Assembly: GCA_963804645.1 (NCBI GenBank)
Contig: CAWDRG010000009.1
Span: 736,001-800,000, forward strand
DNA length: 64,000 nt
Direction of reading: 5' to 3'
Source of the DNA: an uncultured Bacillota bacterium
GTDB taxonomy: Bacteria > Sysuimicrobiota > Sysuimicrobiia > Sysuimicrobiales > Segetimicrobiaceae
Made by a program: the position numbers and the translations under genes. The notes under the pieces are model-generated. The model was not told where the DNA came from. It worked only from the letters and a program-made list of their open reading frames with translations, and ran no database searches. This document shows positions 37,333-57,510 of this stretch, one piece after another; positions within the stretch are counted from its first letter, which is position 1, and each line of letters opens with the position of its first letter.

Positions 37333-37389
37333 ACGAAGAGCGCGGCGAGGCGCTCTCGGGCACTGCACTACGCGGGCGGGGGGGCGACC

Positions 37390-37774: not shown

Positions 37775-38227
37775 ATGCAGAAGTCGATCACGAGGCTCGT
37801 CGTGTGCGTCCTACTGGTCTTTGCTACGGCAAGCATGAGCTCGGCGGCCACAATGCAGCCCTCGCTGTACGATCGTTTGGGCGGCCTGACGGCCATCAAG
37901 GCCGTGGTCGACCAGTTTGTCACGAACGTGGGTGCCGACAACAAGATCAACAAGTTTTTCACGGCGACCGTCGCGGATCCGCAGCGCCTCGCCACCTTCA
38001 AGACGAACCTCGTGAACCTGATCTGCCAGGGCACCGGCGGCCCGTGCAAGTACACCGGCAAGACCATGAAGGCTGCGCACGAGGGCATGGGAATCACCGA
38101 CGCGGACTTCAACGCGCTCGTCGGCGATCTCGTCGCCGCGCTGAACAAGTTCAAGGTGAGCGCCCAGAACCAGAAGGACCTGCTCGCGCTGCTTGGTCCC
38201 ATGAAGGGCGACATCGTCGGACAGTAA
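37775..38227 (+). CDS. Group 1 truncated hemoglobin with N-terminal signal peptide
   Basis: SLYDRLGG, GGPCKYTGKTMKAAH (proximal His), ITDADFNALV; hydrophobic leader. Confidence 0.92.
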   Translation: MQKSITRLVVCVLLVFATASMSSAATMQPSLYDRLGGLTAIKAVVDQFVTNVGADNKINKFFTATVADPQRLATFKTNLVNLICQGTGGPCKYTGKTMKAAHEGMGITDADFNALVGDLVAALNKFKVSAQNQKDLLALLGPMKGDIVGQ

Positions 38228-38308
38228 CCGTATCCTGGAATTCAGAGGGATGAGGCGTCCTGAGTTCCGCCCACGCGGCTCGGGGCGCCTCTCTGTTGGG
38301 CGGGCGAG

Positions 38309-39049: not shown

Positions 39050-39338
39050 GCCTGCCACTTAACGCGAGAACGCCTGGTCGGCCAACACGGCGAAGCGGTC
39101 GCGCGCGGGTGGGTCGCCCTATCCATGGCCGTGTCTCCTGTTGTGGGTATTTGTCCCTTATTGGGCTGTACGGCTTGGGCGCACCCTGATTGGGACCGCG
39201 TCGGTTGCGCTTGAGTCCCGACTCGGATCTCAGTAAATGTCTTCTCGAAGACCTGCTAGAGTCGTTCGAAGCCGCGACGTGCCAATCTCTTATTGTTGCT
39301 GGTCCGGATCTCTTGTATACTGACACCTGGCTCGACGA

Positions 39339-39413
39339 GCCGGCGTAGCTCAGCGGTAGAGCAGCTCATTCGTAATGAGCAGGTCATCGGTTCAAATCCG
39401 ATCGCCGGCTCCA
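39339..39413 (+). tRNA. tRNA-Thr(CGT)
   Basis: GCCGGCG acceptor pairs with CGCCGGC; anticodon arm GCTCA-TTCGTAA-TGAGC; GGTTCAAATCC T-arm; encoded CCA. Confidence 0.97.
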
Positions 39414-39552
39414 CGTATTTCCCGTAGATTCCGCGTTTTCTGCACCGCTTCCGAGGCTTCGCCGAGCCACGTTCGCGTGAGATCTTGAGAATACATTGCT
39501 TCTCCCAACCGGACAGTGGTATCGTCAAAGCAACACCCCCCAGGAGGACATC

Positions 39553-40041
39553 GTGAAGCTTCTGATCATACGCCACGCGATTGCCGTCGCTCGGGACACG
39601 GCGCAGGTGCCGGACGAGGATCGTCCGCTCACCGAATACGGGAAGCGACGCTTCAAAACGGCGGCGCGCGGTTTGGTCCGAATCTGCGGGCGTCCAGACC
39701 TGCTGCTGACGAGCCCGCTCCTCCGTGCCGTAGCCACGGCTGAGATAGTCGCCGAAGCATGGGGCGGGATCACCCCGACCCATGAACCAATTCTCGCCCA
39801 CGGCAGCCCGCAGGACCTCATCAACGTACTGTCGCAGCATACGGCACACCAGAAGATCGCCATCGTGGGGCACGAACCGTTGCTTTCGGGGTTGCTGGCC
39901 CGGTTGTTGGGTAGCGGGGAGCACCGAAGCCTTACCCTTCGAAAAGGCGGGGTCGCCCTCGTCGACATACCAGGCCCGCCCTCGGAGGGAGGACGACTCG
40001 ACTGGTTGCTGCGTCCGAGGATCCTCCGCGAGCTCGCATAG
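39553..40041 (+). CDS. sixA: SixA-type phosphohistidine phosphatase
   Basis: IRHAIA, DEDRPLT, TSPLLRA..TA, VGHEP; AGGAGG RBS. Confidence 0.9.
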   Translation: MKLLIIRHAIAVARDTAQVPDEDRPLTEYGKRRFKTAARGLVRICGRPDLLLTSPLLRAVATAEIVAEAWGGITPTHEPILAHGSPQDLINVLSQHTAHQKIAIVGHEPLLSGLLARLLGSGEHRSLTLRKGGVALVDIPGPPSEGGRLDWLLRPRILRELA

Positions 40042-40129
40042 ACCTCTGCAGCGTACCGCTGCGCGCTCGTGCACCTTCCCGGCGCTTCCTTTGCTGAAAA
40101 GACAACCTGGACTTTGTCGGGATACTGTC

Positions 40130-40185
40130 AGAGCAGCGCACTCAGAAGGCGCGGGTCACGAGTTCGAATCTCGTCGGCGGCTCTA
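40130..40185 (+). repeat. Degenerate tRNA-Thr 3' remnant R1 (att-like)
   Basis: AGAGCA GCGCA CTCAGAA GGCGC GGGTC ACGAG TTCGAAT CTCGT CGGCGGC TCTA is collinear with the tRNA 3' portion. Confidence 0.85.
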
Positions 40186-40732
40186 GTGTTTAGCAAGGGT
40201 TTCCGCACGTTCCATCCAGCCGTCCCCCGCGCTTTGCGTAATCTTACTAATCCGCGCGTCGGAGCCCGACCCCAGCATCCGTTCAGCCACGAGTGCTGCC
40301 GGCCGTGCATCTGCTGGTGATGTGGGCGCCACCGGATCCACGGACCGAGCGTCCATTCGGGACTGCTGGACCCGTCCGTCGGGTGTTCATCGCCTGTGGA
40401 TGTTGAGCAGTGCCAGTGTGCTCGATGCGGCCGGCACCTGCGAACACCTTCGCACCAGAACCGTCGGGCGCGGTGAGCCGTGGTCGGTCACGGCGCGCAC
40501 GCTCGAAGTGCGCGCCGGCGACGGGCTGGCGCCCGATGCCGTGCAGGCGCTGCGGCGGACCGTCCACAAGGAATAGGTTCTGAGATGGGGCCAGACCATC
40601 GAGTGTGCAACTCTGCACAGTGGGCCAATTCGTGCCGTGCTACACTCAACACAAAGGGGTGCTTGCTGAATCGGCAGGCGGTACCTCTTGCGTCAGCCGA
40701 CGAATCTCAGAGAGGGAAAGGGAGGAACGGCC

Positions 40733-40966
40733 ATGGCGCTCGACAACGATCGGAACCGTGTGTTGGCCTCGCTACGAGATCGATCGGAAAGCGTCGACTG
40801 CGCTGCTTTGGCCCAGATCGTTGGGCTCGCCCAACAAGCGGTGGAGCGTCATGTCCTCTACTGCGCGGACTACGGTCTGGCCACATGGAAGCGGCAGCGC
40901 GATGGCTTGGGGCGGGTGGCGATTACTGCCAGGGGCCTCGACTATTTGGGCCGGCAGAGCCTGTAG
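40733..40966 (+). CDS. Small winged-HTH-like protein (77 aa)
   Basis: GGAGG RBS; LAQIVGL..QAVERHV..C..YGL, AITARGLDYL pattern. Confidence 0.7.
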   Translation: MALDNDRNRVLASLRDRSESVDCAALAQIVGLAQQAVERHVLYCADYGLATWKRQRDGLGRVAITARGLDYLGRQSL

Positions 40967-41713
40967 GACGCCCGATCGGATGCCCATCGAACTTGGTGGC
41001 GCGTTCGGTCACCCACATCCATGTTCACCGCGCCTTTACGCAAATCATGGACATCTGGCCTTAGGACACAATCTGTGGCGAGGTGCCCCGTGGGCAAATA
41101 CATCCGGGCGAAGTCTGGGTTACCGTGGCCCGTGAGCGGAACGTATGTCTGCGATAAGTGCCACGCGCGCACACGAGCCGCATCGGTGTCATCGCACCGC
41201 GATGTCCCACCCCTCGTGGAGACCAGCGTGCGTGTAATTGTGCCTACTTCGTGTTGAGTGAAGATGCTCGCCGCCAAGATGACACGTCGCAAAGCCTCAA
41301 GGTGACTGCATCACGTGATGCGGCGCCACCGATGCCCGGTACTGTCCTGATAGGATACTTCCCAACGAAGCACGTGCGTCGCGTCGTCAAGGGAGGCAAG
41401 CAAGCACTCCACGCCTGAACCGCCAGTGCCACCGCTGCCGTGGTAGCGGATACAGCGGACGGCAGCATACGAACAAGACGCAGCCGCCGGTAACGTAGAT
41501 CCAGCACCAATCTGAGCTTACATCTTGGCGTGTGCCTCTGGAGTGAGCGAGATGTCGTCCACGACCATGCGTATCGAGGACTACGGACAATAAGCGTCTC
41601 TACACACACCAGTTGGCAGACGTTTGCTCGCCGAGTCGATGGTCTAAGATTAGGGGCGGTTCAATCGGGCAAGGTTATGCGGGCCGCGAGGCGCTGCGCG
41701 GGAGGGACCGTTG

Positions 41714-42754
41714 ATGAAAGCTGTGAGGAAGCTCGCTCCCGGATTTGGACATGTGGATTATGTTGACGTTGCGAAACCGGAACTTACACGTGGATATGTG
41801 ACGTTGCAGGTGGAGGCAGCCGGGATCTGTGGTACGGACCTGCATATTCACGATGGCGAGTATGCAAGTCAGCCACCTGTCACGATGGGTCACGAGGTAT
41901 CTGGAACCGTATTCGAAGTCGGTGAAGGGGTGACTGGATGGCGGCCGGGCGATCGTGTCACCACAGAGACTTTCTTTTCCGTGTGCGGCCGATGCCGATA
42001 CTGTCGAGGTGGGCAGCCCAATCTCTGCCCGGAGCGCCACTCGATCGGATCTGGGGCCAATGGAGGGTTTGCAAGGTACCTTATGGTGCCCGCGAGTAAC
42101 CTTCACTTGCTTCCCAATGAAGTGTCATTTGCGGCGGGGGCTCTCACGGAACCCCTCGCTTGCTGCGTGCATGCCGTTCAACGCGCGGGCGTTGTTGTTG
42201 GGGATGTGGTTCTCGTCTCAGGCCCTGGCCCGATTGGACTCCTATGCGTGCAACTCGCCCGTATCGCAGGGGCGCACGTGGTCGTTACGGGAACCGACGC
42301 GGATGCGATCCGGTTGAAAAAGGCCGCCGCTTTAGGAGCGCACACGGTGCTGAACACTCAGCATGACCCCGAGAAACTCAGGCCCGTAGTTGGGGAACTC
42401 ACGGATGGGGCCGGGTTTGATGTCGTGATGGAGTGCGCCGGCGCACCGGCGTCAGCAGCCAGTTGTCTCGCCTTCGTACGCCGTGGCGGCCGCTACGCGC
42501 AGCTGGGTCTCTACGGAAAAACGATCCCGATTGACCTCGACGCAGTGTGTTTCAAGGAGCTGACGGCCACAGGGACATTTGCTCAAATTCCGTCGGCGTG
42601 GCAGACGGCGATAAGGCTGATGGCTTCGGGCCAAGTAAGCACGGAATCCTTGATTTCCGAAATGGTCCCGCTATCACAGTGGGACAGGGCATTCGACAGT
42701 CTCCGTCGGAAGAACGCGATCAAGATCTGCCTCTTCCCAGACGCTGACAATTGA
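41714..42754 (+). CDS. Zinc-dependent alcohol/polyol dehydrogenase (MDR)
   Basis: GICGTD, GHE, CGRCRYC..C structural Zn site, GPGPIG. Confidence 0.94.
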   Translation: MKAVRKLAPGFGHVDYVDVAKPELTRGYVTLQVEAAGICGTDLHIHDGEYASQPPVTMGHEVSGTVFEVGEGVTGWRPGDRVTTETFFSVCGRCRYCRGGQPNLCPERHSIGSGANGGFARYLMVPASNLHLLPNEVSFAAGALTEPLACCVHAVQRAGVVVGDVVLVSGPGPIGLLCVQLARIAGAHVVVTGTDADAIRLKKAAALGAHTVLNTQHDPEKLRPVVGELTDGAGFDVVMECAGAPASAASCLAFVRRGGRYAQLGLYGKTIPIDLDAVCFKELTATGTFAQIPSAWQTAIRLMASGQVSTESLISEMVPLSQWDRAFDSLRRKNAIKICLFPDADN

Positions 42755-42872
42755 GCGGTCCACCCGGCGTCGTGGCGCCATAGATCCTTGTCCGAGTCCA
42801 GAGTGACGTGCTGATTCCGTGAATCTCGCGGGCGACCTCTCTACATCGCACGTCAGATGGGGCGGTTGTGGG

Positions 42873-42908
42873 AGATTCCCCGAAAACGCACTCGGAATAC
42901 GCACGCCA
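42873..42908 (+). repeat. tRNA-anticodon-arm remnant R2 (direct repeat of R4)
   Basis: AGATTCCCCGAAAACGCACTCGGAATACGCACGCCA; 32/36 identical to 53932-53967. Confidence 0.75.
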
Positions 42909-43234
42909 GTGGCCGGATCTCCATGTCCACTCCGGATTTCCGCACCAAGCTGACGGATTCCGCTCGGGACTCCTTCGTATACGGTGGTCGTGTCTTCCCC
43001 ACGGTGTCGCCCACTTCTCGCGATCGAGACGCGGGATCTCGACTCGGCGTGCCACCACCTCAAGATGCTTCGCGACAGTGCCCCGCCGCGCCACCAGTCG
43101 GGCGGGCTCTGAGTTCCGGAATGCGCCGCGGCACGGCGCCGACGGGTCGCGCAGAGACGCCGCTCCACCGGCAGGATCGTTCTTACGCGCCTCCGAAGGG
43201 TGCCCACGCCGACGGGCTGAATCGGGGAGGCGGT

Positions 43235-44614
43235 ATGTTCGATCTGGTGATTCGGGGCGGCACCCTCGTCACGGCGGGGCAGACCGGCGTGGCCGACGTT
43301 GGCATTGAAGAGCAGCATGTGGTGCAGATTGGCGGCGAGATGCGCGGACGGCGGGAGATCGCCGCGGCGGGCCTGTACGTATTTCCTGGCGGTGTCGACG
43401 CGCACGTGCACCTGAGCCAGCCCGCGCCGCCCGCGCCCGGGCGTGAGTTGTGGGTAGATGACTTCTTCAGCGGCTCCCTCGCCGCGATCGCTGGCGGGGT
43501 GACCACCGTTGGCAACATGACGTTCCAGTGGCCGGGCGAAACCCTCGTGGACGCCCTCGAGCGGGATCTCAAGGCGGCCGCCCGCGAAGCCGCGGTGGAT
43601 GTCATTCTGCACCCGGTTCTCACGGAACCAACCGACGCCGTGATCGCCCAGATCCCCGCGCTCGCGGATTCCGGCCACACGAGCCTTAAGATCTTCATGA
43701 CCCGCTCCAACTTCGAGCCCCAGCTTGAGCGGTATCTCGAGGCGATGCGCCAGGCCGGGATGGCGAAGATGCTGACCCTGGTGCACTGTGAGGATGGGGC
43801 GGTGATGCGGTTCGTCCACCAGCGGCTCGCGGCCGAGGGGCGCGATGCTGTCCGCTACTATCCGGACAGCCGGCCGGTGTACACCGAGGCGAGCGCGACG
43901 GAACGTGCGATCGCGATGGCCCAGGCAGCAGGCGCTCCGATCTACGTCGTGCACCTTTCATCGGCGGCGGCGCTCGCACACTGCAGACGCGCCCGCGCCG
44001 CGGGCGAGCGGGTGTACGTCGAGACGCGGCCACTCTACCTATACCTGACGCGGGAGCGGTTCGAGGAGCCGGATGGCGCGAAGTACGTGGGCGCCCCGGC
44101 CCTTCGGGAGCCGGCCGACGTGGCGGCGCTCTGGGGCGGCCTCGAAAGCGGCGACATTCAGTGCGTCTGCACCGATCATGCACCGTGGAACCTTCGCCAG
44201 AAGCTCGACCCCACGCTGACCGTCGCGAACGCGCGACAGGGGGTCGCGGACCTCGAAACCCTGATGCCGATGCTGTTTTCGGAGGGGGTCGTGAAGCGGG
44301 GCCTGTCCCTCAGCCGGTTCGTGGAGCTCACGAGCACGAACGCCGCCAAACTCTTCGGCCTGTACCCGCAGAAAGGCACGATCGCCGTCGGCGCCGACGC
44401 CGATCTCGTGGTATGGGACGCCAAGCAGCGCCGCAGGATCGACGGTGCGTTGATGCAGTCCCGTGCGGGTTATTCCGTGTACGACGGGCTCGATGTGCAG
44501 GGATGGCCAGCGTACACGATCAGCAGGGGAGAAGTCGTGCTGGACCATGGAACCATCTCTGCGCCGCGGGGCCGCGGCCGGTGGGTGAGGCGGGGCCCGA
44601 CAGCAGCGCTCTAA
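43235..44614 (+). CDS. hydA: Dihydropyrimidinase / D-hydantoinase
   Basis: MFDLVIRGG, GGVDAHVH, SLKIF, VHCED, VVHLSS, TDHAP, KGTIAVGADAD. Confidence 0.9.
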   Translation: MFDLVIRGGTLVTAGQTGVADVGIEEQHVVQIGGEMRGRREIAAAGLYVFPGGVDAHVHLSQPAPPAPGRELWVDDFFSGSLAAIAGGVTTVGNMTFQWPGETLVDALERDLKAAAREAAVDVILHPVLTEPTDAVIAQIPALADSGHTSLKIFMTRSNFEPQLERYLEAMRQAGMAKMLTLVHCEDGAVMRFVHQRLAAEGRDAVRYYPDSRPVYTEASATERAIAMAQAAGAPIYVVHLSSAAALAHCRRARAAGERVYVETRPLYLYLTRERFEEPDGAKYVGAPALREPADVAALWGGLESGDIQCVCTDHAPWNLRQKLDPTLTVANARQGVADLETLMPMLFSEGVVKRGLSLSRFVELTSTNAAKLFGLYPQKGTIAVGADADLVVWDAKQRRRIDGALMQSRAGYSVYDGLDVQGWPAYTISRGEVVLDHGTISAPRGRGRWVRRGPTAAL

Positions 44615-45011
44615 CCGCCTCGACCACGGCCTATTGCTGGTGCCCGGCTCCCCGGGGACAGATTGGATAGAGCGAATTTAGGTTTGCACACTCAACCCAT
44701 GGTGGTCCGTGTATCTTTGGCGTTTGGTCCACGTCGGCCACCGTCAGCGGTTGTCCGAGTCCACCCGAGGAATTCTCACAGGAGGTAGAGTTGTTACTGG
44801 CCTCTCGGGATCGTGGTGGGAAGCCATCGCCAGTCTTGTGTGTTACTCGGCACTCTTCACAAAGGTCCGTTCTCGTATTTGGCTCGACTCGTGTATCGAA
44901 GGAGTTCGGGAAATCGAACAGAAACTCCAGACCACTTGTTTCCAACGACGATTCTAATGGGTTCCCATTCCGGCGCGGTGGGCATCCAATGCGCGTAAAG
45001 AGGGGGAGTGC

Positions 45012-46553
45012 ATGCGGATGCGGGCGGTGGTGACGGCGTGCCTGGTCGTGGCGCTGGTGGTTGGGCTCGGCGCAGCTAATGGCGTGCTTGCACGGACATC
45101 GGATACCGTTACCATCGCGCAGGGAGCCGACATTTCGAACGGGGATCCGCATCGGACAGGTTTGACCACAGACTTCAACGTCCTTGCCAATATCTATGAG
45201 ACACTTGTGAGCCGCGATCCGGATTTGCATATACAACCTGGTCTCGCCGTGTCGTGGAAGGTCGTTGGTCCCACTACGTGGGAATTCAAGCTGCGGCAAG
45301 GAGTTCGCTTTCACGATGGCGAGCCGTTCAATGCGCGGGCCGTCAAGTTTTCCATCGAGAGAGGGAAAGATCCACGATTTCGCTGGGCACGGGCATTCAT
45401 GCTTGCGCCGATTCGATCCGTAACAGTGATCGATGATGACACCGTGCGCTTTGAAACAACAGGCCCGATCCCAAGCGCACTTTTCCTACAATTGCTGGCG
45501 GTAAGTAGCTTTATCGTGCCGCCGGGATATCTGGGGAAGAATGGTGACGAGGCGCTCATACGACAGCCCGTTGGCACGGGTCCGTACCGATTTGTTCGCT
45601 GGGTGAGGGACGATCATGTTGAGCTGGAGGCCAACCCGACGTACTGGGGCGGTCGTCCTCACATCGGACACGTGATAGTTCGGGATATCCCGAATGACGC
45701 CACGCGACTTTCCGAGCTTCTGGCCGGCTCCGTGGATATCATCAACCTTATCCCGCCCACGCTATTTTCGCCCATTCAGAGTTCCTCAAGGACGAAATTG
45801 GTCCAGGGCGCTAGCTTGTCGATTTTCTTCATTCACTTCAACCTGATCAACATTTCGAAGGACCGGCCACTGGCCGATCCTCGTGTCCGGCTGGCTCTCA
45901 ACTATGCCGTGGCGCGAAGACAGTTGATCACGACAATCATGCATGGTATCGGCACACCCGTGGCCACGTTCTGTGTGGCACTTCAATTTGGATGTGATAC
46001 GTCAATCCCCGTGACGTCGTACGATGTGAGCCGCGCCAAAACCCTGCTTGCCCAGGCAGGATATAGCAACGGGTTCGACATGACGATCGCGACGACTTCG
46101 GGTTCGTATCCTGGAGATCGGGATCTGACTCTCGCCGTGTCGGATCAACTCAATCTGATAGGTGTGCGTGCGCACCCAGTCATCGTCGAGTACGGCATCC
46201 TCCAAACGCAACGGGTAAACCGGAAGGTCACATGGGACGCAATTTTCACGCGCGCAACAAGTTTTTATGCCAACGCTGGCGAGCTTGGATTCTCCAATTT
46301 CAGTAGTAACGCTGAAGCTTCTCTGTGGTCACCAGCCGATCCCGAGTTTGAACAGCTGTTGACAGAAGCGCAACAGTCTTCCAACGACACCCAGGCCAAG
46401 GCGTTTTTGCGCAAGGCTCAGCTGTTGTTCCGAGACGAATCGCCGTCGATTCCCTTATTGACTTCGCCGAACGTCTATGGAATGAGTCATGATTTGCAGT
46501 GGACGCCTCGCCCGGACCTGCTTTTGACCATGGCGAGTGCGTCCTGGCAATGA
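45012..46553 (+). CDS. Family 5 ABC substrate-binding protein (no permease adjacent)
   Basis: Signal peptide; WEFKLRQGVRFHDGEPFNA, PVGTGPY, VRLALNYAV. Confidence 0.93.
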   Translation: MRMRAVVTACLVVALVVGLGAANGVLARTSDTVTIAQGADISNGDPHRTGLTTDFNVLANIYETLVSRDPDLHIQPGLAVSWKVVGPTTWEFKLRQGVRFHDGEPFNARAVKFSIERGKDPRFRWARAFMLAPIRSVTVIDDDTVRFETTGPIPSALFLQLLAVSSFIVPPGYLGKNGDEALIRQPVGTGPYRFVRWVRDDHVELEANPTYWGGRPHIGHVIVRDIPNDATRLSELLAGSVDIINLIPPTLFSPIQSSSRTKLVQGASLSIFFIHFNLINISKDRPLADPRVRLALNYAVARRQLITTIMHGIGTPVATFCVALQFGCDTSIPVTSYDVSRAKTLLAQAGYSNGFDMTIATTSGSYPGDRDLTLAVSDQLNLIGVRAHPVIVEYGILQTQRVNRKVTWDAIFTRATSFYANAGELGFSNFSSNAEASLWSPADPEFEQLLTEAQQSSNDTQAKAFLRKAQLLFRDESPSIPLLTSPNVYGMSHDLQWTPRPDLLLTMASASWQ

Positions 46554-46818
46554 CCCTCATGCGGGGAGACTGTGCTAGTTGGCGCAACTGCGCACGAGTG
46601 GTTTTCACGAATGTACGCGAGGCGCGTCCGCGTCGCCGAGCGGTTGTCCGATGTCGACCGGATCCGTTTATTCGTCGGAAGGTGTGCCACCTTGGTTAAG
46701 CGGGGCGCACAGTGACGGTAAACGTCAGCTCCCGCTCTACGGAGAACATGGGGGCCCGCTAGCACCGGGACGCCCTTCGCGAACGCACCTGTTTTCGCTA
46801 CGTTGGGGGTGGTGTGTT

Positions 46819-48588
46819 GTGGTCACAGGTGCCGAGACGATTTACGGAGCCAAGGGATGGTCCGTGCGTGATCGGATGTCCCGCCCGCTTATCATGGGGT
46901 TGCGAGGGATGGTTTCCGCGGGTCACTATCACGCGGCCTTTGCGGGAATGCGTGTTCTTGCCGCTGGGGGCAACGCGGTCGATGCCGGGGTGGCTGCCGG
47001 TCTCGTGCTCAACGTCGTACATAATGACATGTGCAGTCTTTCAGGCGTTGCCCCGATCATGCTCTATCACGCTCAGACACAGACACTCACGACGATCGCC
47101 GGAGTGGGCGTGTGGCCCGAGGCGGCGACGCTCGAATATTTCCTAAACGAGAAGCAAGGCACCATTCCGGATGATCTTACTCGTTGCGTGGTGCCAGCCG
47201 CCGCCGCCGCTTGGTTACTCGCATTACGAAACTACGGCACGATGCGATTTGGTGAGGTGGCTGCCGATGCGATCAGTTTGGCAGCCGAAGGATTCCCAGT
47301 GTATCATTTCATGGCCCGCAGTATTCAGACGAATGTCGCGGGATACCGGAAGTATCCAGTGAATCGCGAGGTCTACCTCCGTGATGGTAACGCGCCCGAG
47401 GTCGGTAGCGTCATCGTACAGCGGGATCTTGCGGCGACACTTCGCGCGATGGCGGAGGTGGAAGAGCGCGCCCACGTCGGCGGACGGGAGCGGGCGCTAG
47501 ACGCGGTCCGGGACTACTTCTACCGTGGGCCCATCGCCAAGGCGATGGTAAAGTTCTCGCAGGACCACGGTGGGTTATTCGCGCAAGAGGACTTCGAGAC
47601 GTTTGCGGTCCGCGAGGAACCGCCACAACAAGTGCGCTACTGCGGGGACCAAGTGTACGGCTGCGGTCCTTGGAGCCAGGGGCCCACACTCCTGATGGCG
47701 CTCGGAATCCTTGACGGCGTGCCACTCGGGGCGTACTCACACAACGGTCCCGACGCCGTCCATCACATCGTCGAGGCACTCAAACTGGCGTTCTCCGACC
47801 GCGAGCGCTACTGTGGTGACCCGCGCTTCGTGGACGTGCCGATTGACCACCTGCTGTCGGCGGCCTATCTAGCCGAACGGCGAGGAAGGATCGACCCCTC
47901 GCGCGCGTGGCCCGAGATGCCGCCCTCTGGCGACATTCCAGGATTCCCAAGTTTCGCAACGGAGGCGCCGCCATCCACGACAGCCGCTACCGCGACTGAC
48001 GATCTCGTGGGGACGTCGTACCTTGCTGTTATGGATCGGCATGGCAACGCATTTTCCGCCACGCCGAGCGATGGCTACGCCACCGGGCCGGTCATTCCGG
48101 GGCTGGGACTCCACATCTCTGACCGTGGAACTCAGGCGAGCTTAGATCCCGGTAGCCCGAACGTAATTGTCCCTGGAAAGCGGCCGCGGCTTACGCCCAA
48201 CCCCGCGATGGTGTTCCGGAACGGTGTGCCCTTCATCGCATTTGGCACGCCGGGCAACGACCGGCAACCCCAGGCAATGGTCCAGGTCCTGAGCAACATG
48301 CTGCGCTGGGGTATGAATCCCCAAGAGGCGGTCGAGCAAGCGCGTGTCGCTTCCTACTCTTTTCCGTCATCGACCTATCCCAACAAGTACGAACCTGGCA
48401 TGCTTCGAATCGAAGGTGGGGTGCCCGACGCGACCGTCGTAGAATTGCGGCGCCGCGGACACACTGTAGATCTTTGGCCGAGATGGTCGTACTCTGCCGG
48501 TGGAGTCTGCGCCGTTCGGAGAGACATCGACGGTGTCTTCACGGGAGGTGCCGATCCGCGGCGAGAAGCGTACGTAGCTGCTCTGTGA
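46819..48588 (+). CDS. ggt: Gamma-glutamyltransferase-family Ntn hydrolase
   Basis: GGNAVDAG, G|TSY cleavage site, PGKRPR, FGTPG, GGADPRR; start codon uncertain. Confidence 0.9.
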   Translation: MVTGAETIYGAKGWSVRDRMSRPLIMGLRGMVSAGHYHAAFAGMRVLAAGGNAVDAGVAAGLVLNVVHNDMCSLSGVAPIMLYHAQTQTLTTIAGVGVWPEAATLEYFLNEKQGTIPDDLTRCVVPAAAAAWLLALRNYGTMRFGEVAADAISLAAEGFPVYHFMARSIQTNVAGYRKYPVNREVYLRDGNAPEVGSVIVQRDLAATLRAMAEVEERAHVGGRERALDAVRDYFYRGPIAKAMVKFSQDHGGLFAQEDFETFAVREEPPQQVRYCGDQVYGCGPWSQGPTLLMALGILDGVPLGAYSHNGPDAVHHIVEALKLAFSDRERYCGDPRFVDVPIDHLLSAAYLAERRGRIDPSRAWPEMPPSGDIPGFPSFATEAPPSTTAATATDDLVGTSYLAVMDRHGNAFSATPSDGYATGPVIPGLGLHISDRGTQASLDPGSPNVIVPGKRPRLTPNPAMVFRNGVPFIAFGTPGNDRQPQAMVQVLSNMLRWGMNPQEAVEQARVASYSFPSSTYPNKYEPGMLRIEGGVPDATVVELRRRGHTVDLWPRWSYSAGGVCAVRRDIDGVFTGGADPRREAYVAAL

Positions 48589-48844
48589 CGATGCCGCGTA
48601 GTTGCGGGTGAGGCCGACCTCCGTGTCCCACGACAGTACGTGCAGGCCTCAACGCTGGTCTCGGTTCTGGCCTTTGGGGGACGCTGACGGTGAGACGGTC
48701 CGGACGGGCGGTCCCTTGTATTCGCAACAAGCCCTGGCATCGCGATAGCCGGCTTCCGCGGAGCTTTGAAACATGATGCCGGATGAGTGCCACGCTGCGC
48801 TTGGAATGTGCGGAGCCGCTCTCCAGCGGTTTCAAGGGTAATCT

Positions 48845-48893
48845 GCGCACTCGGAATGCGCAGGCATGAGTTCGAATCTCGTCGCTGGCTCCA
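48845..48893 (+). repeat. Degenerate tRNA-Thr 3' remnant R3 (att-like)
   Basis: GCGCA CTCGGAA TGCGC AGGC ATGAG TTCGAAT CTCGT CGCTGGC TCCA: anticodon arm, T-arm and CCA end. Confidence 0.88.
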
Positions 48894-49164
48894 AGTTTGT
48901 CAGCACCTTCTTTCGACCGCGAACTCTTCTTGCGCGGCGGATGAGGCAAGCGTGTATGTTTGCCACTGGCGAGTTTTCTTCGTGGCGCAGGAGTGTTCCT
49001 ATCGAGCAGAGTATCTGGACTGCGGCGACCGAACCGAATGGGGCGGATCTCGGTCCGCACGCTCGACGTCCTGGGCACCGGCAGCCTCATAGATGCTCAA
49101 GCCGGGCCCGGCTCGTATGACGCTCTACGAGTGAGACCTGACCTGCTTGCCGGGGGGCAATAGC

Positions 49165-49647
49165 ATGGCGCAGCGACAGGTCCCGATCGACTGGGTTGAT
49201 TTTGAAATGGCGTTCACGTCGCGCATGGACGAGTGGGCGTGTTACCTCGACCTCCGGACGGGGAAGGTGCACGTCGTCTCGACGTCGATCGATATGGGTG
49301 ACGATGGGCTGAGTGACGAGGATGAGGCCCTGAGTGAGGAGGCCATCGACGCGGGTCTCACGCAGGGATGGTTGCTTCGGATCGAACCGGTGGAATCATC
49401 CGAAGAATACGAATGGATGGTCGAGTTCACTAGCTCGATCGGCGACCCTCGGCTCCGGGAACTCCTTGAGGTTGCTCTGGATGGTCGCGGTGCCTTCCGG
49501 CGATTCAAGGACGTGCTCACGAGATGGCCTGAAGAGCGCGCGCGCTGGTTCGCGTTTCACGACGAGTGTCTACGGAACGCGATGCTGGAATGGCTAACCG
49601 CGCGCGAGATCGAGCCCATGTCGGTGCCACCAGAGAGGGCCCCGTAA
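49165..49647 (+). CDS. UPF0158-family protein
   Basis: YLDLRTGKV, EYEWMVEF, ALDGRGAFRRFKDVL, WFAF..WL. Confidence 0.85.
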   Translation: MAQRQVPIDWVDFEMAFTSRMDEWACYLDLRTGKVHVVSTSIDMGDDGLSDEDEALSEEAIDAGLTQGWLLRIEPVESSEEYEWMVEFTSSIGDPRLRELLEVALDGRGAFRRFKDVLTRWPEERARWFAFHDECLRNAMLEWLTAREIEPMSVPPERAP

Positions 49648-49698
49648 GGCGGTAGCGCAGACGCGCGGGCTTCGCGTGTGCTCGGGGGAGCGGATGCG

Positions 49699-50073
49699 GT
49701 GACCGAGTTTCATCCGGCCTGGATTGAGCAGTGTGAGGCGGCATGCGCAATTCGGACTCGGTGGGGTACCCAGAAGGCCCTTGGCAATCTGATCGGGGAG
49801 AAGCTGGTGGAGTTCATGCGGGCGGCAGAGACGGCTCCCGAGTGGCGCGAGCAACTCCCGATGTTCATCGCGGAGATCAAGCGGCTCTTTTCTCGGGAGG
49901 ACATCCGGGCGTATCTCGATAAGATCCGCCGAGTGGGGCCGCTGGGGCATGTCCTTACCGATGAACAATTCGAAGAGTTTCACGAGGCGGGGGCGATCGA
50001 AGACGACCCCATTGGTGACGCGGAGAATGTGCTTCGAGTCGAGCGGGCGCGGACGTTGCTGTTGACGGAGTGA
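49699..50073 (+). CDS. Hypothetical protein
   Basis: GGGAG RBS; WIEQCEAA..IR..G..KAL..LIGEK helical ORF collinear with its neighbours. Confidence 0.7.
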   Translation: MTEFHPAWIEQCEAACAIRTRWGTQKALGNLIGEKLVEFMRAAETAPEWREQLPMFIAEIKRLFSREDIRAYLDKIRRVGPLGHVLTDEQFEEFHEAGAIEDDPIGDAENVLRVERARTLLLTE

Positions 50074-50183
50074 GGTGGGCGCGCGACTTTTGCTCAGCTG
50101 GCGATTGCCGGCAGGGGGCCTCCGCGCCGCCCGAGTGTATCTTGTGAGTGTGTGAGCTTTGGGGGTTGAGGGGGATGGAGGCC

Positions 50184-50723
50184 ATGGGGCGACCGTCGAA
50201 GGGCGGGGGCCTTCGCATTCCAGAGGCCCTTCGGAGCCAGACCGAGGGGATCTTCAAGATGACCGATATGTTTTGCGCCGAGCACCTGGACGCGGAGTAC
50301 GCTGACCTGTGCTGGAGGCTCGTGGCCAGGCTGGCGCGCAAACGGCCCTCACCGCTCGTGCGCGGGGACCTGCGCATCTGGGCAGGGGCCGTGATCCACG
50401 TTGTCGGGAGCCTGAACTTCCTATTCGACCGGACGCAGCGTCCACACTTGACGGCGCACCGATTGAGCGCTTTGACCGGGATCCCCATGAGCACGCTGGC
50501 CAACAAAGCCAGGTTGATTCGGGATGTACTGAGGATCGGCCTGTTCGAGCCCGAACTCTGCCACCGGGAACTTCTGGAGCGCCACCCGATGGCGTGGTTG
50601 ATCTCAGTCGACGGCTTGATCGTGGACGCCCGCATGTTGTCGGCCGAGGTCCAGGCGGAGTTGCGACGGCGCGGGCTGCTTCCTCATCTGCCGGTCGCAC
50701 ATCCGGCCTGCAATGAGCCCTAA
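50184..50723 (+). CDS. DUF6398-like protein
   Basis: TDMFCAEHLDAEYADLC, LARKRPSPL, WAGAVIH, NFLFD, VDGLIVDAR. Confidence 0.8.
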   Translation: MGRPSKGGGLRIPEALRSQTEGIFKMTDMFCAEHLDAEYADLCWRLVARLARKRPSPLVRGDLRIWAGAVIHVVGSLNFLFDRTQRPHLTAHRLSALTGIPMSTLANKARLIRDVLRIGLFEPELCHRELLERHPMAWLISVDGLIVDARMLSAEVQAELRRRGLLPHLPVAHPACNEP

Positions 50724-51210
50724 GCGCGACTCCTACTGCGAACGGCTTGGCCTGTCGGTTCCACGTCTCGAAGACGTCGCGGACGCAGTTCAGGCTCTTC
50801 CACCTTATGGCGGCTGCGCTCCTGGAGCGTGGCCGTCCGATGGGCCTCAATGTTGAGGCCTGCGGGGGTCGTCGCCGGGAACGGCGACCTCGCGCTCTCG
50901 CCCAAGAAGGCTTGGCATGGCATGGGACCGATCTACCGGCACGCCCAGGGCCGCTTCGGGCTGAGCCTCTCGTCGGCGTCGCTGAAGCACATCCTCCGGA
51001 CCGCAGGGCTGCGTGCTCCCCGCTTCGCGGCACTCGCACCGCCTCCGGAGCCGGCGCAGCCGGCGGACGAGATACCACTCTCCGAGAAACGAGCTGGACG
51101 TGGCCTTTTGTGATCGCTTCACCTCCGGGTTCTCGGCGCTCCGGCAGGCCGCCGCAGTCTTCGATGCGCAAGCCGACGTCCCGGTGGACGTTGTGGTCGA
51201 GTCGGTACCA
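50713..51210 (+). pseudogene. Multiply frameshifted 5' fragment of a larger hypothetical gene
   Basis: MSPKRDSYCERLGLSVPRLEDVA / FRLFHLMAAALLERGRPM / AGVVAGNGDLALSPKKAWHG / ELDVAF..SALRQAAAV follow one another in different frames. Confidence 0.6.
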
Positions 51211-51358
51211 GGGTGGGCCGGTGGGCCGATCCGTGGTCGCGCGCCCGGCGGTCGTGGTCGTGAATATCGAGCGTGGGTCGTGACGGTGTGGCAGGGCACT
51301 AAGAAGGTTCTAATCGACCGCCGCGAAATTCAGTCGGCCCGCATGGTCGGAGGTTCCG

Positions 51359-52084
51359 ATGGGTCCTGAGCATAGAGGAGGGATCGCGAAGCCGACCATC
51401 GCCGCGGTGCTGGCGCAGTTCCTCGCGGACCAGCGTGAGCGGCTTGCCCCAAGGACGTTCATACGGTACGAGCAGGTGGTCGAGCTACTCAGGCACAGCC
51501 TAGACGGTTATGCCTACCAGTCGCTCGACGAGGCCGATGCAAAGCTCTTCGACCGCCTTTACAACGCGGAAGACAAGGAGCACCGGGAGTTCTGCGAGAT
51601 CTTCGGGCCGGCGCATATCCTGCCGAACGTCGGTGCGTTCCTCAACTACTTCATGGTTCGGAAGGTGATCGCTGGCGCAGACCTCTTGCGCGCGGCCGGG
51701 ACCGTGACGGGGAAGCTGGCCGCCTGGCTGATGGAAAAGGGGTATGCCGGGAGCGAGGATGCCAGCGATGCCGCAGAACGTGGCGCCGCCGCCATGCGTG
51801 ATCTCCCGAAGGCCAAGGAGCTGGCATCCCGCCTCCGCCGATTCACCGAAGACCAAGAGCTGTGCGACGAAGACGACGAGGTTGAGGATCACTTCACCAT
51901 CACGCGGGTAGAACGCGATAAGGTTTGGCTCGAGGGGATGCTCGACGGACGGGAGCTGGGTCCCATCGACGTCCCGGAGGACATCAGCCGCCGCTGCAAG
52001 GTCGGCTGGACGATCTCCGGCGTGGTCTGCCGCGTTGTCGGGAGGTGGCGGATTGTCGAGGCCTGGAACGTGTACCCGGGGTGA
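51359..52084 (+). CDS. Hypothetical protein (241 aa)
   Basis: Intact ORF; TIAAVLAQFLADQRERL, NYFMVRKV, C-terminal beta-rich segment. Confidence 0.75.
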   Translation: MGPEHRGGIAKPTIAAVLAQFLADQRERLAPRTFIRYEQVVELLRHSLDGYAYQSLDEADAKLFDRLYNAEDKEHREFCEIFGPAHILPNVGAFLNYFMVRKVIAGADLLRAAGTVTGKLAAWLMEKGYAGSEDASDAAERGAAAMRDLPKAKELASRLRRFTEDQELCDEDDEVEDHFTITRVERDKVWLEGMLDGRELGPIDVPEDISRRCKVGWTISGVVCRVVGRWRIVEAWNVYPG

Positions 52085-52345
52085 GCATAGTGGTCGGAGC
52101 GAACAACTCGCACGGCGATGCCAAGCGGTACAGGAAGAGGATATCGGTTCTCGATCTCCTGAAGCCTGGGGAGGCCGAGACCATCCTGCGTCACCTGCTC
52201 GCCGCCCATCCAGAGTTTGGGGTCGAGGCCGAGCAGATCGCCAGATCGGTTCTGAACGACGTGTCGTTCGGGTCGGTTGCCGATGACGTCGAGGATCGCG
52301 CGCGGGCTTTGGGCCTTGACGACCTCAACGGCCGCGCGGGGTCGT
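52081..52345 (+). pseudogene. Probable 3'-truncated hypothetical gene
   Basis: GTG overlaps the upstream TGA; protein-like to LDDLNGRAG, then reads into the antisense strand of the RES gene. Confidence 0.5.
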
Positions 52346-52371
52346 CATTGGACCGCCTGACCGCGGGGCAT

Positions 52372-53022
52372 TCATGGGAGTTCGGCTATTCCGTATCGCT
52401 CGTAGATCTGGGCCAATCGCTCCCTGAGCTTAGGATCTTTCAACCCTCCAATTGAGTCCACCCAAATCTTGCCGCTCGCCCGATCGAAGATAGCCACTGC
52501 CGTTTCACTGGGATCGCGACGGGGATGGTAGAGGATCCCGTCCGGCGCGCGCGGGTGCGACCAGAACGCGAGGCTCCAGCGTCGCGCAACGAGGTGAGAG
52601 CCGCTCGTTAACCGGCCATCGGCACCGAGACGCCCCAGCCCCGGCCCTCGCAAATCGACACAGCGCAGCGGTTCCTGAGGCGTCACCAGGGCCAGGCCAT
52701 AGCTTGCAACCGTACTACCCGAGACCGGGACCGTGGCACCCGAGGCCGACATCGTGATTGCGGCCAGGGTGCCAGGCGCTGGCAAGAGGGTTTCCGCGAA
52801 CGCTACGAACGTCGTGGTGCCTGTATACATGACCCCGTACTCACCATGGGGTGCGTCCCAACGGTTCGTTCGCGAGCGGCCGAAGAATTTCGACGTATGC
52901 TTGAGCCGGTGGATCCGATACAATTCTGAGGATTGTTCGGTGATGGGAAGCGCTCGCCGCGAAAGATCAAGCGGTGGATCAGGGTGTCCGCCAGGTGCGT
53001 CGTCAGGTTCAGGCTGCGCCAT
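52372..53022 (-). CDS. RES-domain toxin (NAD+ phosphorylase-like)
   Basis: LYRIH, NRWDAP, YTG..FAET, VDLRG, DGILYHPRRD. Confidence 0.88.
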   Translation of the reverse strand: MAQPEPDDAPGGHPDPPLDLSRRALPITEQSSELYRIHRLKHTSKFFGRSRTNRWDAPHGEYGVMYTGTTTFVAFAETLLPAPGTLAAITMSASGATVPVSGSTVASYGLALVTPQEPLRCVDLRGPGLGRLGADGRLTSGSHLVARRWSLAFWSHPRAPDGILYHPRRDPSETAVAIFDRASGKIWVDSIGGLKDPKLRERLAQIYERYGIAELP

Positions 53023-53707
53023 GCTCGCCAAAAAGCGCCGCGGCTGTCTTTACTTCTTCCGTCTTCCCCTTCCGTAGGGCATCGAGAGGCCTCTGGTCAT
53101 CGAGCCGATCGTTCGGGCTCAGCATGAAAATGAGTTGTGCCCATGGATCATTCGGTTCGAGCGCGCGTAATACGCTCTCCCACCCCGACAATACACCATG
53201 TCGGACAAATTGCCATGAGGGATACAGATATCCGCGGCGCCCGACAGTAAGCGCCAACAGTTTCTCTGATTTACGGCGCTTGTCCACTGATTGGCGCGAT
53301 ACGCCAAGATGTGAGGCAACCCGCTCGACGGTCCAGGCTCCGCCTTCTGCGTCCAGGAGTTGTTGGCGGGCCTCGAGGCCTCGTGCGCGGGCAGTAGTCA
53401 GGATCTGCTCCGGATCTGTCCGGTCGACCATCTCCGGTGCTTCGAGCACCCGCAGCACGGCCTGGATATTTGTACTTGCCGCCGCCGCTTCGCCAAGTGT
53501 GGGTGTCGGAACGCGACGGAGCGCCTCGGTTGCCGTTGCCAGCCAGCGAGTCAAGAGCGCTTCACGAAGTTCATCGCCGCGGACGTTGAGAGCCTGGCTC
53601 ACTGCCTCGGCTAGGGATCGCGACGTGCCTTTGAGGGTGAGCGTATCCGGAGATCGCCCGCGGTCCCGAATCCGAACTGTCTCACGAGTCGCAGCAGTGC
53701 GCGTCAT
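53009..53707 (-). CDS. Cognate antitoxin of the RES toxin (HTH-containing)
   Basis: VASHLGVSRQSVDKRR HTH, YLYPSWQF, PLDALRKG; overlaps the toxin start. Confidence 0.85.
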   Translation of the reverse strand: MTRTAATRETVRIRDRGRSPDTLTLKGTSRSLAEAVSQALNVRGDELREALLTRWLATATEALRRVPTPTLGEAAAASTNIQAVLRVLEAPEMVDRTDPEQILTTARARGLEARQQLLDAEGGAWTVERVASHLGVSRQSVDKRRKSEKLLALTVGRRGYLYPSWQFVRHGVLSGWESVLRALEPNDPWAQLIFMLSPNDRLDDQRPLDALRKGKTEEVKTAAALFGEHGAA

Positions 53708-53732
53708 AGTTGTTCAACCGCCTTCTCACTAA

Positions 53733-53780
53733 GGGTTGACTAACTATAAGAATATAATACAGTATATCTCTCGTCAACCC
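53733..53780 (-). promoter_or_regulatory. Promoter/operator of the RES TA operon
   Basis: Minus strand TTGACG, 17 bp, TATTCT, bracketed by the inverted repeat GGGTTGAC (53733-53740) / GTCAACCC (53773-53780). Confidence 0.7.
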
Positions 53781-53931
53781 CAATATTCTTCGCCAAGCTT
53801 CACGCGCGCCGGGTTTTGGGGCACCCTTGGGGCACGCTCGCCACCGTCAGGGATCTTCGCGGCTCCCGTCTATCTCAGAAGTCTCGATTCCACTACGATC
53901 TCTAGCCTCTGGAGACATAGTGGATTGCGGT

Positions 53932-53967
53932 AGATTCCCTGAAAACGCACTCGGAATGCACACGTCA
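53932..53967 (+). repeat. tRNA-anticodon-arm remnant R4 (direct repeat of R2)
   Basis: AGATTCCCTGAAAACGCACTCGGAATGCACACGTCA. Confidence 0.75.
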
Positions 53968-53995
53968 ACCTCTCCGTGCGTTGGCGTGGCGAGCA

Positions 53996-54373
53996 CTAGG
54001 GTCTTCGCGTGCCGGCAATTGCACGTTGTACTATGCGAGGATCACGCTGAATCACCGCGAGGAGGATTCGAGCTGGCCGATCTGGTACGGCGCGGCCCTG
54101 CTCCCACTGTTCGATCGTCCGTTGTGCGAGTCCAAAACGCTGGGCAAATTCTGCTTGCGTTAGGTTCATCTGGTCACGGATTTGCCGCACATTGGGGATT
54201 GGTGGTGTATGAACGGCACGAATCCTGACATTGGGTGGCAGCTCTGGTGCGGTGTCCGGATCCGCAGCTATCCACCGCTTGATGTCCTTGGCAGTTGCCA
54301 CCCGCACGCGCTTGAGGCCGACACGGCCTCTTGTCCTACGAATCTCCCCTCGAGAACGTCTGGTGGTAGACAT
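53996..54373 (-). CDS. Xre-type HTH antitoxin (HigA/YiaG-like)
   Basis: ADPDTAP, LTQAEFAQRFG..RTIEQWEQGR..PDRPARILL. Confidence 0.88.
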   Translation of the reverse strand: MSTTRRSRGEIRRTRGRVGLKRVRVATAKDIKRWIAADPDTAPELPPNVRIRAVHTPPIPNVRQIRDQMNLTQAEFAQRFGLAQRTIEQWEQGRAVPDRPARILLAVIQRDPRIVQRAIAGTRRP

Positions 54374-54618
54374 TTCGCTCCCTTCTTGATGCGGGTCGTG
54401 CTGAGATTATCCGCTTTACCTCGCCGCGCAGTGTGTAGACCACGACAAAGATGTCGTGGTCTACTTTCCCCATTGCGACGATTCGTTGCTCGTGGTACTC
54501 GTGGCGAGCATCTTGTCATTCCAACACATCGCCGTCAAAGATTCTTGATGCGCACGCGAAGTCAAATCCAACGCTCCGTCAAGTTCTTGTCACTCTTGCT
54601 CTGGTCCCATTCGAACAT
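54336..54618 (-). pseudogene. brnT: BrnT-family toxin pseudogene
   Basis: MFEWDQSKSDKNLTER /+1 frameshift near 54570/ GFDFACASRIFDGDVLE*QDARHEYHEQR..VVVYTLRG..RIISARPASRRER; in-frame TGA at 54516-54518. Confidence 0.88.
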
Positions 54619-54752
54619 GATCTGCAGTCAACACCGCGAATGGCGATGATATCATTAGTACCAATTCTAGGGTACTACGCATTCCGCGTATCCGTTAATA
54701 GCGTATGCTTAAGCACTGCTGTAGACTTTTAGAACATGGTATTTGAAATTCG

Positions 54753-54805
54753 GCGCACTCGGCGTGCGCAAGTCATCAATTCGGATTCCGCAGCGTGCGC
54801 CTCCA
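54753..54805 (+). repeat. Highly degenerate tRNA-Thr 3' remnant R5
   Basis: GCGCA CTCGGCG TGCGC AAGTC ATCAATTCGGATTCCG..GCCTCCA. Confidence 0.6.
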
Positions 54806-54864
54806 TTTTTCACGAAGGGTTGAACAGTTTTGCGATCGTCCAGTGTTGCCGCTGACGGAGCCGA

Positions 54865-57453: not shown

Positions 57454-57510
57454 CATTGGCGGATCGTTGGGCGCTCAGAGGTGCAGACAGGAAATCGGAG
57501 GTGACACCTT

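Follow-up and report, generated by a model that had tools for sequence, protein, structure and literature searches.

Relics of tRNA-Thr(CGT) separate small integrase-free modules in a genomic island of an uncultured Segetimicrobiaceae bacterium

What leaves a row of worn tRNA fragments behind an intact tRNA gene, with a different set of genes in each gap? The question is raised by a stretch of 64,000 nucleotides (hereafter the window; forward-strand positions 736,001–800,000 of contig CAWDRG010000009.1, GenBank assembly GCA_963804645.1) from an uncultured Bacillota bacterium of the family Segetimicrobiaceae, in which an intact tRNA-Thr(CGT) gene is followed by five degenerate copies of its 3′ part, here termed relics R1–R5, and by two more beyond the window. 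We interpret the locus as a tRNA-anchored flexible island formed by serial site-specific integration of mostly integrase-less modules, similar to cis-mobilizable elements (CIMEs) or to tycheposon islands, and assign this reading a probability of about 0.62. The evidence comprises relics that share one strand and lie downstream of the tRNA, a module-exact difference between strains, modules and arms common to other genera, and integrases that adjoin the same tRNA in relatives and are absent from this contig.

Seven relics of tRNA-Thr(CGT) on one strand

The host genome (G000) is a 5.3-Mb assembly, 96.8% complete, with the window on its contig C9, where window position 40136 corresponds to C9:776136. 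Transfer RNA genes were called with ARAGORN and scored with the Rfam tRNA covariance model (gathering cut-off 29 bits; scan of window 36000–58000, E up to 10), and relics were sought with the 17-mer GCGCACTCGGAATGCGC, allowing up to three mismatches in the window and up to two genome-wide. The original prediction, made from the sequence of the window alone, had placed five same-orientation tRNA-Thr(CGT) fragments downstream of the intact gene, and all five were recovered, as plus-strand matches at 40136, 42886, 48845, 53945 and 54753. Two of these also matched on the reverse strand because they are palindromic, giving seven matches in the window against a mean of 0.90 in shuffled windows, none of 100 shuffles reaching seven. 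Genome-wide the 17-mer has ten matches, of which seven lie on the plus strand of C9:776136–855346 and three are scattered singles; the motif is thus not a genome-wide one independent of this tRNA, as seven of its ten occurrences fall in a single 80-kb stretch behind the gene. Relics R6 (C9:854557; arm at C9:854565, exact) and R7 (C9:855316; arm at C9:855330) lie 64 kb past the last relic of the window. A profile built from the relics and searched over C9:770000–862000 recovered exactly these seven (E ≤ 2.2e-6) and no further relic in that range, the next plus-strand match being the tRNA itself (E = 0.28). All seven relics are therefore on the same strand and downstream of the tRNA, spread over 80 kb. 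The tRNA and the relics of the window are as follows.

39339–39413, plus strand: intact tRNA-Thr(CGT), the integration target, on the attL side of the array (ARAGORN; Rfam tRNA 72.7 bits)
40120–40190, plus strand: relic R1, covering tRNA positions ~20–76, with AGAGCA, an anticodon arm with loop CTCAGAA, T arm, acceptor end and TCTA (profile E 2.2e-6)
42870–42913, plus strand: relic R2, with element-side arm GGGAGATTCCCCGAAAA, core CGCACTCGGAAT and a degenerate right side (profile E 1.8e-7)
48822–48893, plus strand: relic R3, a full-length pseudo-tRNA with exact core, intact T arm, paired acceptor stem and broken D arm
53816–53972, plus strand: relic R4 (from 53929) with its element-side arm, made of two TTGGGGCAC repeats (53816 and 53827), then GGTAGATTCCCTGAAAA, then core CGCACTCGGAAT (profile E 2.4e-8)
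54738–54800, plus strand: relic R5, with anticodon-arm loop CTCGGCG, variable loop AAGTC and a decayed T arm (profile E 2.3e-7)

As predicted, R1 and R3 preserve a paired T arm and the 3′ strand of the acceptor stem; R1 is 80% identical to the tRNA of a congener over positions 16–76. The two share an identical T-arm 17-mer that is absent from the tRNAs of all ten relatives compared, which is expected if the 3′ halves arrived with the elements. The predicted position in spacers was also confirmed, all five window relics lying between open reading frames (ORFs) with Pfam support. R2 falls within the longest ORF of an amidohydrolase gene (42857–44614) and is most likely upstream of the true start, since the amidohydrolase domain begins at residue 174 and a paralogue is 121 residues shorter. 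Further candidates were discarded: a relic-like stretch near 44686 gained no support from the relic profile, TTGGGGCAC is not enriched as an arm motif (11 matches in the window against 13.3 expected, only the pair before R4 being exact), and among the Rfam matches only the tRNA and R3 are meaningful, the six others being at chance level.

The host tRNA alone does not disclose the source of the relics. Their consensus, GCGCA-CTCGGAA-TGCGC, differs from the host arm, GCTCA-TTCGTAA-TGAGC, at four of 17 positions, so that the tRNA-Thr origin becomes visible only from relatives. For this comparison a family set of 23 genomes was used, consisting of G000 and 22 relatives; the unpublished genome G030 underlies no claim. 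In the ten relatives from which the locus was retrieved, tRNA-Thr(CGT) always just follows the same gamma-glutamyltranspeptidase gene and carries the arm GCGCA-(C/T)TCGTAA-TGCGC, one base off the relic consensus, which has G for T at position 36. Judged by this alignment, the relics are the native tRNA-Thr arm of the lineage with that single substitution; they read anticodon CGG, and ARAGORN labels R3 tRNA-Pro(cgg).

The host tRNA-Thr(CGT) is 100% identical to tRNA genes of two other genera (G016:C41 and G017:C45) and only 87–91% identical to those of the five congeners with a match. It departs from the usual family form by a compensated change of pair 29:41, and its T stem is different in almost every species of the genus, each change being compensated. 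The T-stem variation, together with the tRNA identity across genera, suggests that the 3′ part of the tRNA is frequently replaced by element-borne copies. The upstream side of the tRNA has also taken up an insertion, as the distance from the gamma-glutamyltranspeptidase gene to the tRNA is 2007 bases in the host vs 301–443 bases in five congeners; the extra DNA (window 37333–39338) holds a DUF420-cupredoxin gene and its neighbours. The window has two gamma-glutamyltranspeptidase genes of 669 codons each, one in the syntenic core before the tRNA (35323–37332) and one between R2 and R3 (46579–48588). An eighth 3′-half relic of tRNA-Thr(CGT), with T kept at position 36, was found at G000:C15:254820–254875, unlinked to any tRNA-Thr gene and flanked by genes for a pyridine-nucleotide disulphide oxidoreductase and a PAS-LuxR regulator; 2 kb upstream of it lies an IS110 transposase.

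Module borders in strains and relatives

Logan contigs from four peat-metagenome runs (X1–X4) were placed on window 38500–55500. One X1 contig (1373 bases) and one X3 contig (863 bases) join 40136 directly to 42887, skipping 2750 bases; seven letters, CGCACTC, fit both sides, and 255 letters lie on the shorter side. These contigs are ~99% identical to the window (4 letters differ in 394 bases and 13 in 977), and contigs bearing the intervening module, module 1, were found in X1, X2, X3 and X4. The assembled contigs, on which the polymorphism rests, therefore represent a near-identical strain without exactly the 2.75-kb R1–R2 module, its junction lying in the anticodon stem-loop core at tRNA positions 28–34. 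A repeat-induced misjoin is unlikely, as the shared seven-letter word is far shorter than the assembler's word.

Comparison with other genera draws borders at the same features. The order R6-higA-higB-R7 aligns with tRNA-higA-higB-copy in G017 at ~80% column identity, and the similarity opens at the tRNA or R6 and closes at the copy or R7. The module between R6 and R7 is thus higBA, and the same 0.7-kb unit stands beside the intact tRNA in the genus of G017 and 80 kb deep in the host array. Likewise, R4 and 150 bases of its left arm align with G007:C92, from a third genus, where the R4-type arm joins a T arm identical to that of G007's own tRNA. R2 has the same GAGATTCC...GAAAA arm as R4, the left arm being common to R2, R4 and G007:C92. 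The build of R4 and of the G007 copy corresponds to a putative attR layout, in which the left side is an element arm and the right side either the host's 3′ half or an earlier one. Three independent tests, namely the strain variant, the higBA module and the R4 arm, put module borders at relics; breakpoints fall at the remnants in a near-identical strain and in two other genera, as the original prediction required.

Among the remaining metagenome contigs, one from X4 joins 53855, in the arm left of R4, back to 39367, in the anticodon stem of the intact tRNA. It goes back 14489 bases with 38 letters on its short side and is too weak to use; a related element of another strain may have given rise to it, as an attR or as a circle junction. 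Nothing was drawn from other contig joints, which are not at relics or have short sides: 44624 to 52202 (short side 30 letters), 43841 to 49061 (22), 45349 to 46068 and 46093 to 46414 (26 letters each), and 39053 to 39265. No relic-like sequence occurs at 44624 or 52202.

Displacement of the 3′ part of this tRNA is widespread in the family. When the tRNA was searched by BLAST against the 23 genomes, at least 14 of the 22 relatives had partial copies of its 3′ part with ≥85% identity, ~30 in all; the shortest are confined to the T arm and may derive from other tRNAs. The stretch shared by tRNA and copy starts at positions 22–32 and extends to the 3′ end. In G002, the tRNA and a 53-base copy of its 3′ part (positions 25–76) bound an island of 4.3 kb. 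In G017, a first copy follows the tRNA at 0.7 kb, with higA-higB in between, and a second follows 0.9 kb further on, beyond a Phd-type antitoxin. The islands of G010, G007 and G013 measure 9.6, 3.2 and 5.9 kb. The cargo that follows the tRNA differs in each relative examined, and tblastx of ten relatives' downstream flanks gave paralogue noise except for the G017 higBA module and one G002 gene, matched at C9:872–873k in reverse orientation.

A second array of the same build lies behind the tRNA-Thr(TGT) gene of the host (G000:C6:87595–99600) and has five further copies, of which those at 92942, 94112 and 95913 are near-perfect 3′ halves and those at 91144 and 99556 are full-length with diverged 5′ halves. 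The near-perfect copies mark this array as young. Its modules measure 3.5, 1.8, 1.2, 1.8 and 3.6 kb between successive copies, are co-oriented with the tRNA and, where scanned, hold about one gene each (a 1049-residue beta-lactamase-fold protein, an S41 peptidase, an aldo-keto reductase); C6 encodes no integrase. The aldo-keto reductase gives no evidence of cassette-like mobility, since tRNA copies are absent from the surroundings of its homologues in G002, G005 and G006. A 400-residue ORF in an integrase-like place matches no Pfam or PHROG family. In G004:C6, two copies 0.9 kb apart lie 22 kb behind the tRNA.

The content of the modules was taken from ORFs with Pfam support; codon-usage gene calls were mis-framed in the island and in high-G+C stretches. 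Genes of the window lie on both strands.

39414–40119, plus strand: module 0, a histidine phosphatase (SixA-like) gene at 39496–40041 (Pfam His_Phos_1, 1.5e-11)
40191–42869: module 1 (2.75 kb including one core copy), with ORFs without family, a 277-base repeat and a Zn-dependent alcohol dehydrogenase gene
41711–42754, plus strand: the Zn-dependent alcohol dehydrogenase of module 1 (Pfam ADH_N, ADH_zinc_N)
42914–48821, plus strand: module 2, with the amidohydrolase ORF 42857–44614, its true start probably later (Pfam)
45012–46553, plus strand: family-5 solute-binding protein of module 2 (Pfam)
46579–48588, plus strand: gamma-glutamyltranspeptidase of module 2 (Pfam)
48894–53815: module 3, with UPF0158 (49147–49647), DUF6398 (50148–50723) and three ORFs without family (Pfam)
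52372–53031, minus strand: RES toxin of module 3 (Pfam)
53009–53707, minus strand: Xre/MbcA/ParS-like antitoxin of module 3 (Pfam domains below curated cut-offs)
53973–54737, minus strand: module 4 (0.77 kb), with an HTH_3/MqsA-like antitoxin gene at 53996–54373 (Pfam HTH_3, 1.2e-8)
54801–64000: start of module 5, which runs 64 kb to R6 at C9:854557, outside the window

Most gene names first proposed for these modules are supported by Pfam (histidine phosphatase or sixA, Zn-dependent alcohol dehydrogenase, amidohydrolase, solute-binding protein, gamma-glutamyltranspeptidase, UPF0158, RES and hydantoinase), whereas a winged helix-turn-helix protein and BrnT have no such support. Module 4 is probably a toxin-antitoxin pair; the small ORF upstream of its antitoxin gene (54268–54519) has no family. 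Module 5 comprises hydantoinase/oxoprolinase, RraA-like, SDR, ABC-transport and amidohydrolase genes and one IS5-type transposase (Pfam). The module 0 phosphatase has a homologue in G007:C54 at 75% nucleotide identity.

Just past R1, the 277-base segment 40295–40571 has two further copies in the host genome (C4:160994–161252 and C4:163256–163530, 85–87% identity) and may be the end of a small gene family; metagenome contigs break at its start, 40295. Homologues of one module 1 ORF in G012:C48 and G014:C9 were not accepted as moved modules, no relics lying near them.

Integrases, mobilisation and rival explanations

In G012, G005, G032 and G003 the tRNA is immediately followed by an integrase ORF or fragment on the opposite strand, and relics in G001:C110 and G002:C27 show the same arrangement, six places in all. 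The two full-length integrases combine Arm-DNA-bind_4, Phage_int_SAM_3 and Phage_integrase domains and represent two lineages only 38% identical; with such divergence at this very tRNA, specificity is not readable from identity. In the host, C9 has no match to PF00589 in a six-frame search and none to PF00239, and tblastn with the relatives' integrases found no match in the island and only fragments beside other tRNAs, so that the integrase sought beyond the 64 kb or elsewhere did not emerge as a cognate enzyme in this genome. The phage-type fragments concerned (C11:25539–25916, C8:110269–110418 and C4:32708–32827) adjoin tRNA-Pro(TGG), tRNA-Pro(CGG) and tRNA-Ala(GGC), and these host tRNAs therefore also carry decayed integrative elements. 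Among the 135 ORFs in the islands of five relatives no integrase was found. Integrase homologues at 33–41% identity occur in five of five genomes of relatives with integrase-less arrays. Integrase-less modules are therefore the rule in the family, and autonomous integrase-bearing elements use the same site. No conjugation genes were seen.

We propose that the recombination site is the anticodon stem-loop of tRNA-Thr(CGT), with the crossover probably inside the loop (positions 32–35), and that the island grew serially downstream. The attachment site of an incoming DNA circle would combine three parts, namely an arm of the element, the core and a tRNA 3′ part of its own. Integration of the circle would restore a working tRNA and move the older 3′ part downstream, attached to the arm that the newcomer brought. 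The catalyst would be an arm-binding tyrosine integrase of the type that adjoins the tRNA or relics in relatives. Most modules are non-autonomous, having sites and no integrase, and for that reason would have been moved in trans by autonomous sibling elements, in the manner of CIMEs or tycheposon-island cargo. At least one module, that of R1–R2, was gained or lost precisely at the relic cores in the recent history of the population. Serial integration explains the single strand, the spacer positions, the left element arms, the foreign T arm of R1 and R3 and the depth of the higBA module. Movement in trans is favoured by three features: a 2.75-kb module without integrase was gained or lost exactly, the modules of 0.7–0.9 kb are tight, and no integrase debris is present. 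The idea of repeated integration at one tRNA, already advanced in the original prediction, is thus supported by displaced copies in relatives, integrases at six places and breakpoints at relics.

Several observations weigh against this account. All seven relics have G at position 36, and every tRNA-Thr(CGT) has T there. G36 recurs in copies of G003:C4, G031:C13 and G007:C92, young copies in relatives keep T, one G017 copy carries C, and the same left arm accompanies only three of ten copies with G36; a G in the overlap of the elements' own sites, segregated from the tRNA T upon replication, might account for this. A simple push-down model predicts relics that are more decayed the farther they lie from the tRNA, and the relics do not follow this order. 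Part of the 64-kb interval from R5 to R6 has core-like G+C. In G003 and G002, integrase fragments next to relics show that some modules are stripped autonomous elements. The contigs do not give the direction of the module 1 polymorphism (insertion or excision), no circular form was seen, and microhomology deletion by chance at the two cores keeps a small probability as its source. The far border of the island is not fixed by synteny, the 14.6 kb after R7 having no match in the relatives' tRNA-Thr contigs. As to present activity, no cognate integrase was found in a genome that is 96.8% complete, and the array is therefore probably frozen here.

A bolder form of the trans-mobilisation model, which we hold only tentatively and regard as doubtful, casts the two tRNA-Thr genes as cassette docks for integrase-less units of 0.5–6 kb with their own complete attachment site, which integrases encoded elsewhere insert, excise and shuffle, also at worn relics. 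If true, the system would be a tRNA-based functional analogue of the integron, spreading toxin-antitoxin pairs and single enzymes between genera.

The alternative that survives best, although we consider it unlikely, is a pure fossil record, in which every module is what remains of an autonomous, integrase-bearing element inserted at the tRNA, the integrases and backbones having been deleted afterwards. Nothing would have been moved in trans, and the R1/R2 strain difference would be due to old divergence between lineages or to a microhomology deletion by chance. The integrases or fragments by the tRNA or relics at six places in relatives fit this explanation, as do the decayed state of the host relics, the lack of a cognate integrase in G000 and the toxin-antitoxin cargo, such pairs being the genes likeliest to survive deletion. 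However, the six-frame search revealed no integrase fragment on C9; modules of 0.7–0.9 kb hug their sites closely in two genera; all five relatives' islands examined lack an integrase; the tRNA-Thr(TGT) array is young, with near-perfect copies, yet C6 has no integrase; and the strain variant is ~1% different and lacks exactly one module, with its junction in the seven-base core.

Exchange of modules by RecA-dependent crossing-over between tRNA-half repeats of 45–50 bases, with no integrase involved, is improbable. Repeats of ~48 bases are long enough for homologous recombination, and young arrays do have near-identical repeats of about that length, but R1 and R2 share only seven identical bases at the junction, too few for RecA, and the element arms with conserved motifs beside the cores point to a site-specific enzyme.

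More improbable still is an integron-like platform, with a resident integrase by the tRNA, a common promoter, promoterless co-oriented cassettes and folded sites. Chromosomal integrons carry toxin-antitoxin cargo, the modules are small with one or two genes, and those of C6 are co-oriented with their tRNA; against this, C9 has no tyrosine recombinase, gene orientation in the window is mixed, the sites are tRNA halves with arm motifs and not attC-like, and the integrases of relatives are arm-binding phage-type enzymes inside the array. The integron-like array with an integrase acting in trans that had been suggested at the outset is thus upheld in one respect and not in the other: action in trans gains support from the precise presence or absence of the integrase-less 2.75-kb module and from the five of five islands without integrase, whereas the platform itself does not.

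Least credible of all is a working role for the relics, whether as small RNAs of tRNA-like form, as an operator palindrome or, in the case of R3, as a functional tRNA-Pro(CGG), for although ARAGORN calls R3 a tRNA and the core is a five-base-pair palindrome, R3 scores 25.8 bits against the Rfam cut-off of 29 with gaps in a broken D arm and has A instead of the usual G at position 37, the genuine tRNA-Pro(CGG) is located at C8:109958, R2 and R4 have a broken stem (three of five pairs) while the loop is kept, and the similarity extends into the variable loop and T arm.

Serial integration of mostly integrase-less modules therefore remains our preferred explanation. Read in this manner, the locus details the growth of a tRNA-anchored island in a poorly known soil and peat lineage as a dated series of scars, with one module caught as a presence/absence difference and one toxin-antitoxin module at different array depths in two genera. 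Island finders that require an integrase and a minimum size miss stacks of very small integrase-free modules. Should such modules move in trans, a route by which genes commonly flow among uncultured bacteria would be undercounted.

Comparison with known systems

Integron cassettes and the pdif modules of Acinetobacter plasmids are small, carry no mobility gene, often encode toxin-antitoxin pairs and depend on a recombinase encoded elsewhere. The host modules resemble them in being small, site-bounded and devoid of mobility genes, and differ in that their sites are tRNA halves. No IntI, attI, attC or Xer-type sites were found at the host array: with no tyrosine recombinase on C9 there is no intI head, the module ends are not attC, and genes lie on both strands. 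The host island is thus not an integron.

CIMEs keep attL and attR without integration or transfer genes and stack up at the 3′ end of their target gene by accretion, as newcomers integrate into an att site; they are described as decayed integrative and conjugative or integrative and mobilizable elements of Firmicutes, usually one per locus, that are mobilised in cis once such an element has joined them (PMC5704250). The host modules are likewise bounded by relics that correspond to retained attL and attR and have no recombinase, but they are very small, are strung together in a long array and have no known conjugative partner. In Dehalococcoides, tandem site-specific insertion at ssrA has left repeats of the ssrA 3′ end between islands (PMC3146451), which is the same serial insertion at one small-RNA gene with a different target, tmRNA.

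Among the tRNA-gene islands compiled by Islander, anticodon-centred sites are the commonest class, accounting for 2083 of 3919 islands (Hudson, Lau and Williams 2015, PMC4383910). The host locus shares with these islands an intact tRNA gene with displaced same-orientation 3′ fragments downstream, a defined anticodon-centred site within the tRNA, content that differs between relatives and, in relatives, tyrosine integrases at the tRNA. It differs in having seven relics, modules down to 0.7 kb and no tyrosine integrase inside each island, none being present on C9 in six frames. By its published description, Islander needs an integrase per island, rejects candidates below 2 kb and lists only four arrays of three or more (PMC4383910).

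The closest growth model is that of the Prochlorococcus tycheposon islands, in which newcomers at a tRNA push older elements inward, leaving partial tRNAs and degenerated elements scattered, and in which the DNA is mostly cargo without mobility genes and cells of one population differ by blocks (10.1101/2020.12.28.424599). This is essentially the growth proposed for the host island. The hallmark genes of tycheposons, an integrase and a helicase-primase replication module, do not appear in Pfam scans of the host array, which show cargo and toxin-antitoxin genes only; moreover, the host is an unrelated high-G+C peat bacterium, and the integrases of its relatives are arm-binding phage-type enzymes. 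Collectively, these comparisons place the island within a known kind of structure, to which it adds worn relics that are polymorphic between strains and a family in which both tRNA-Thr genes are used.

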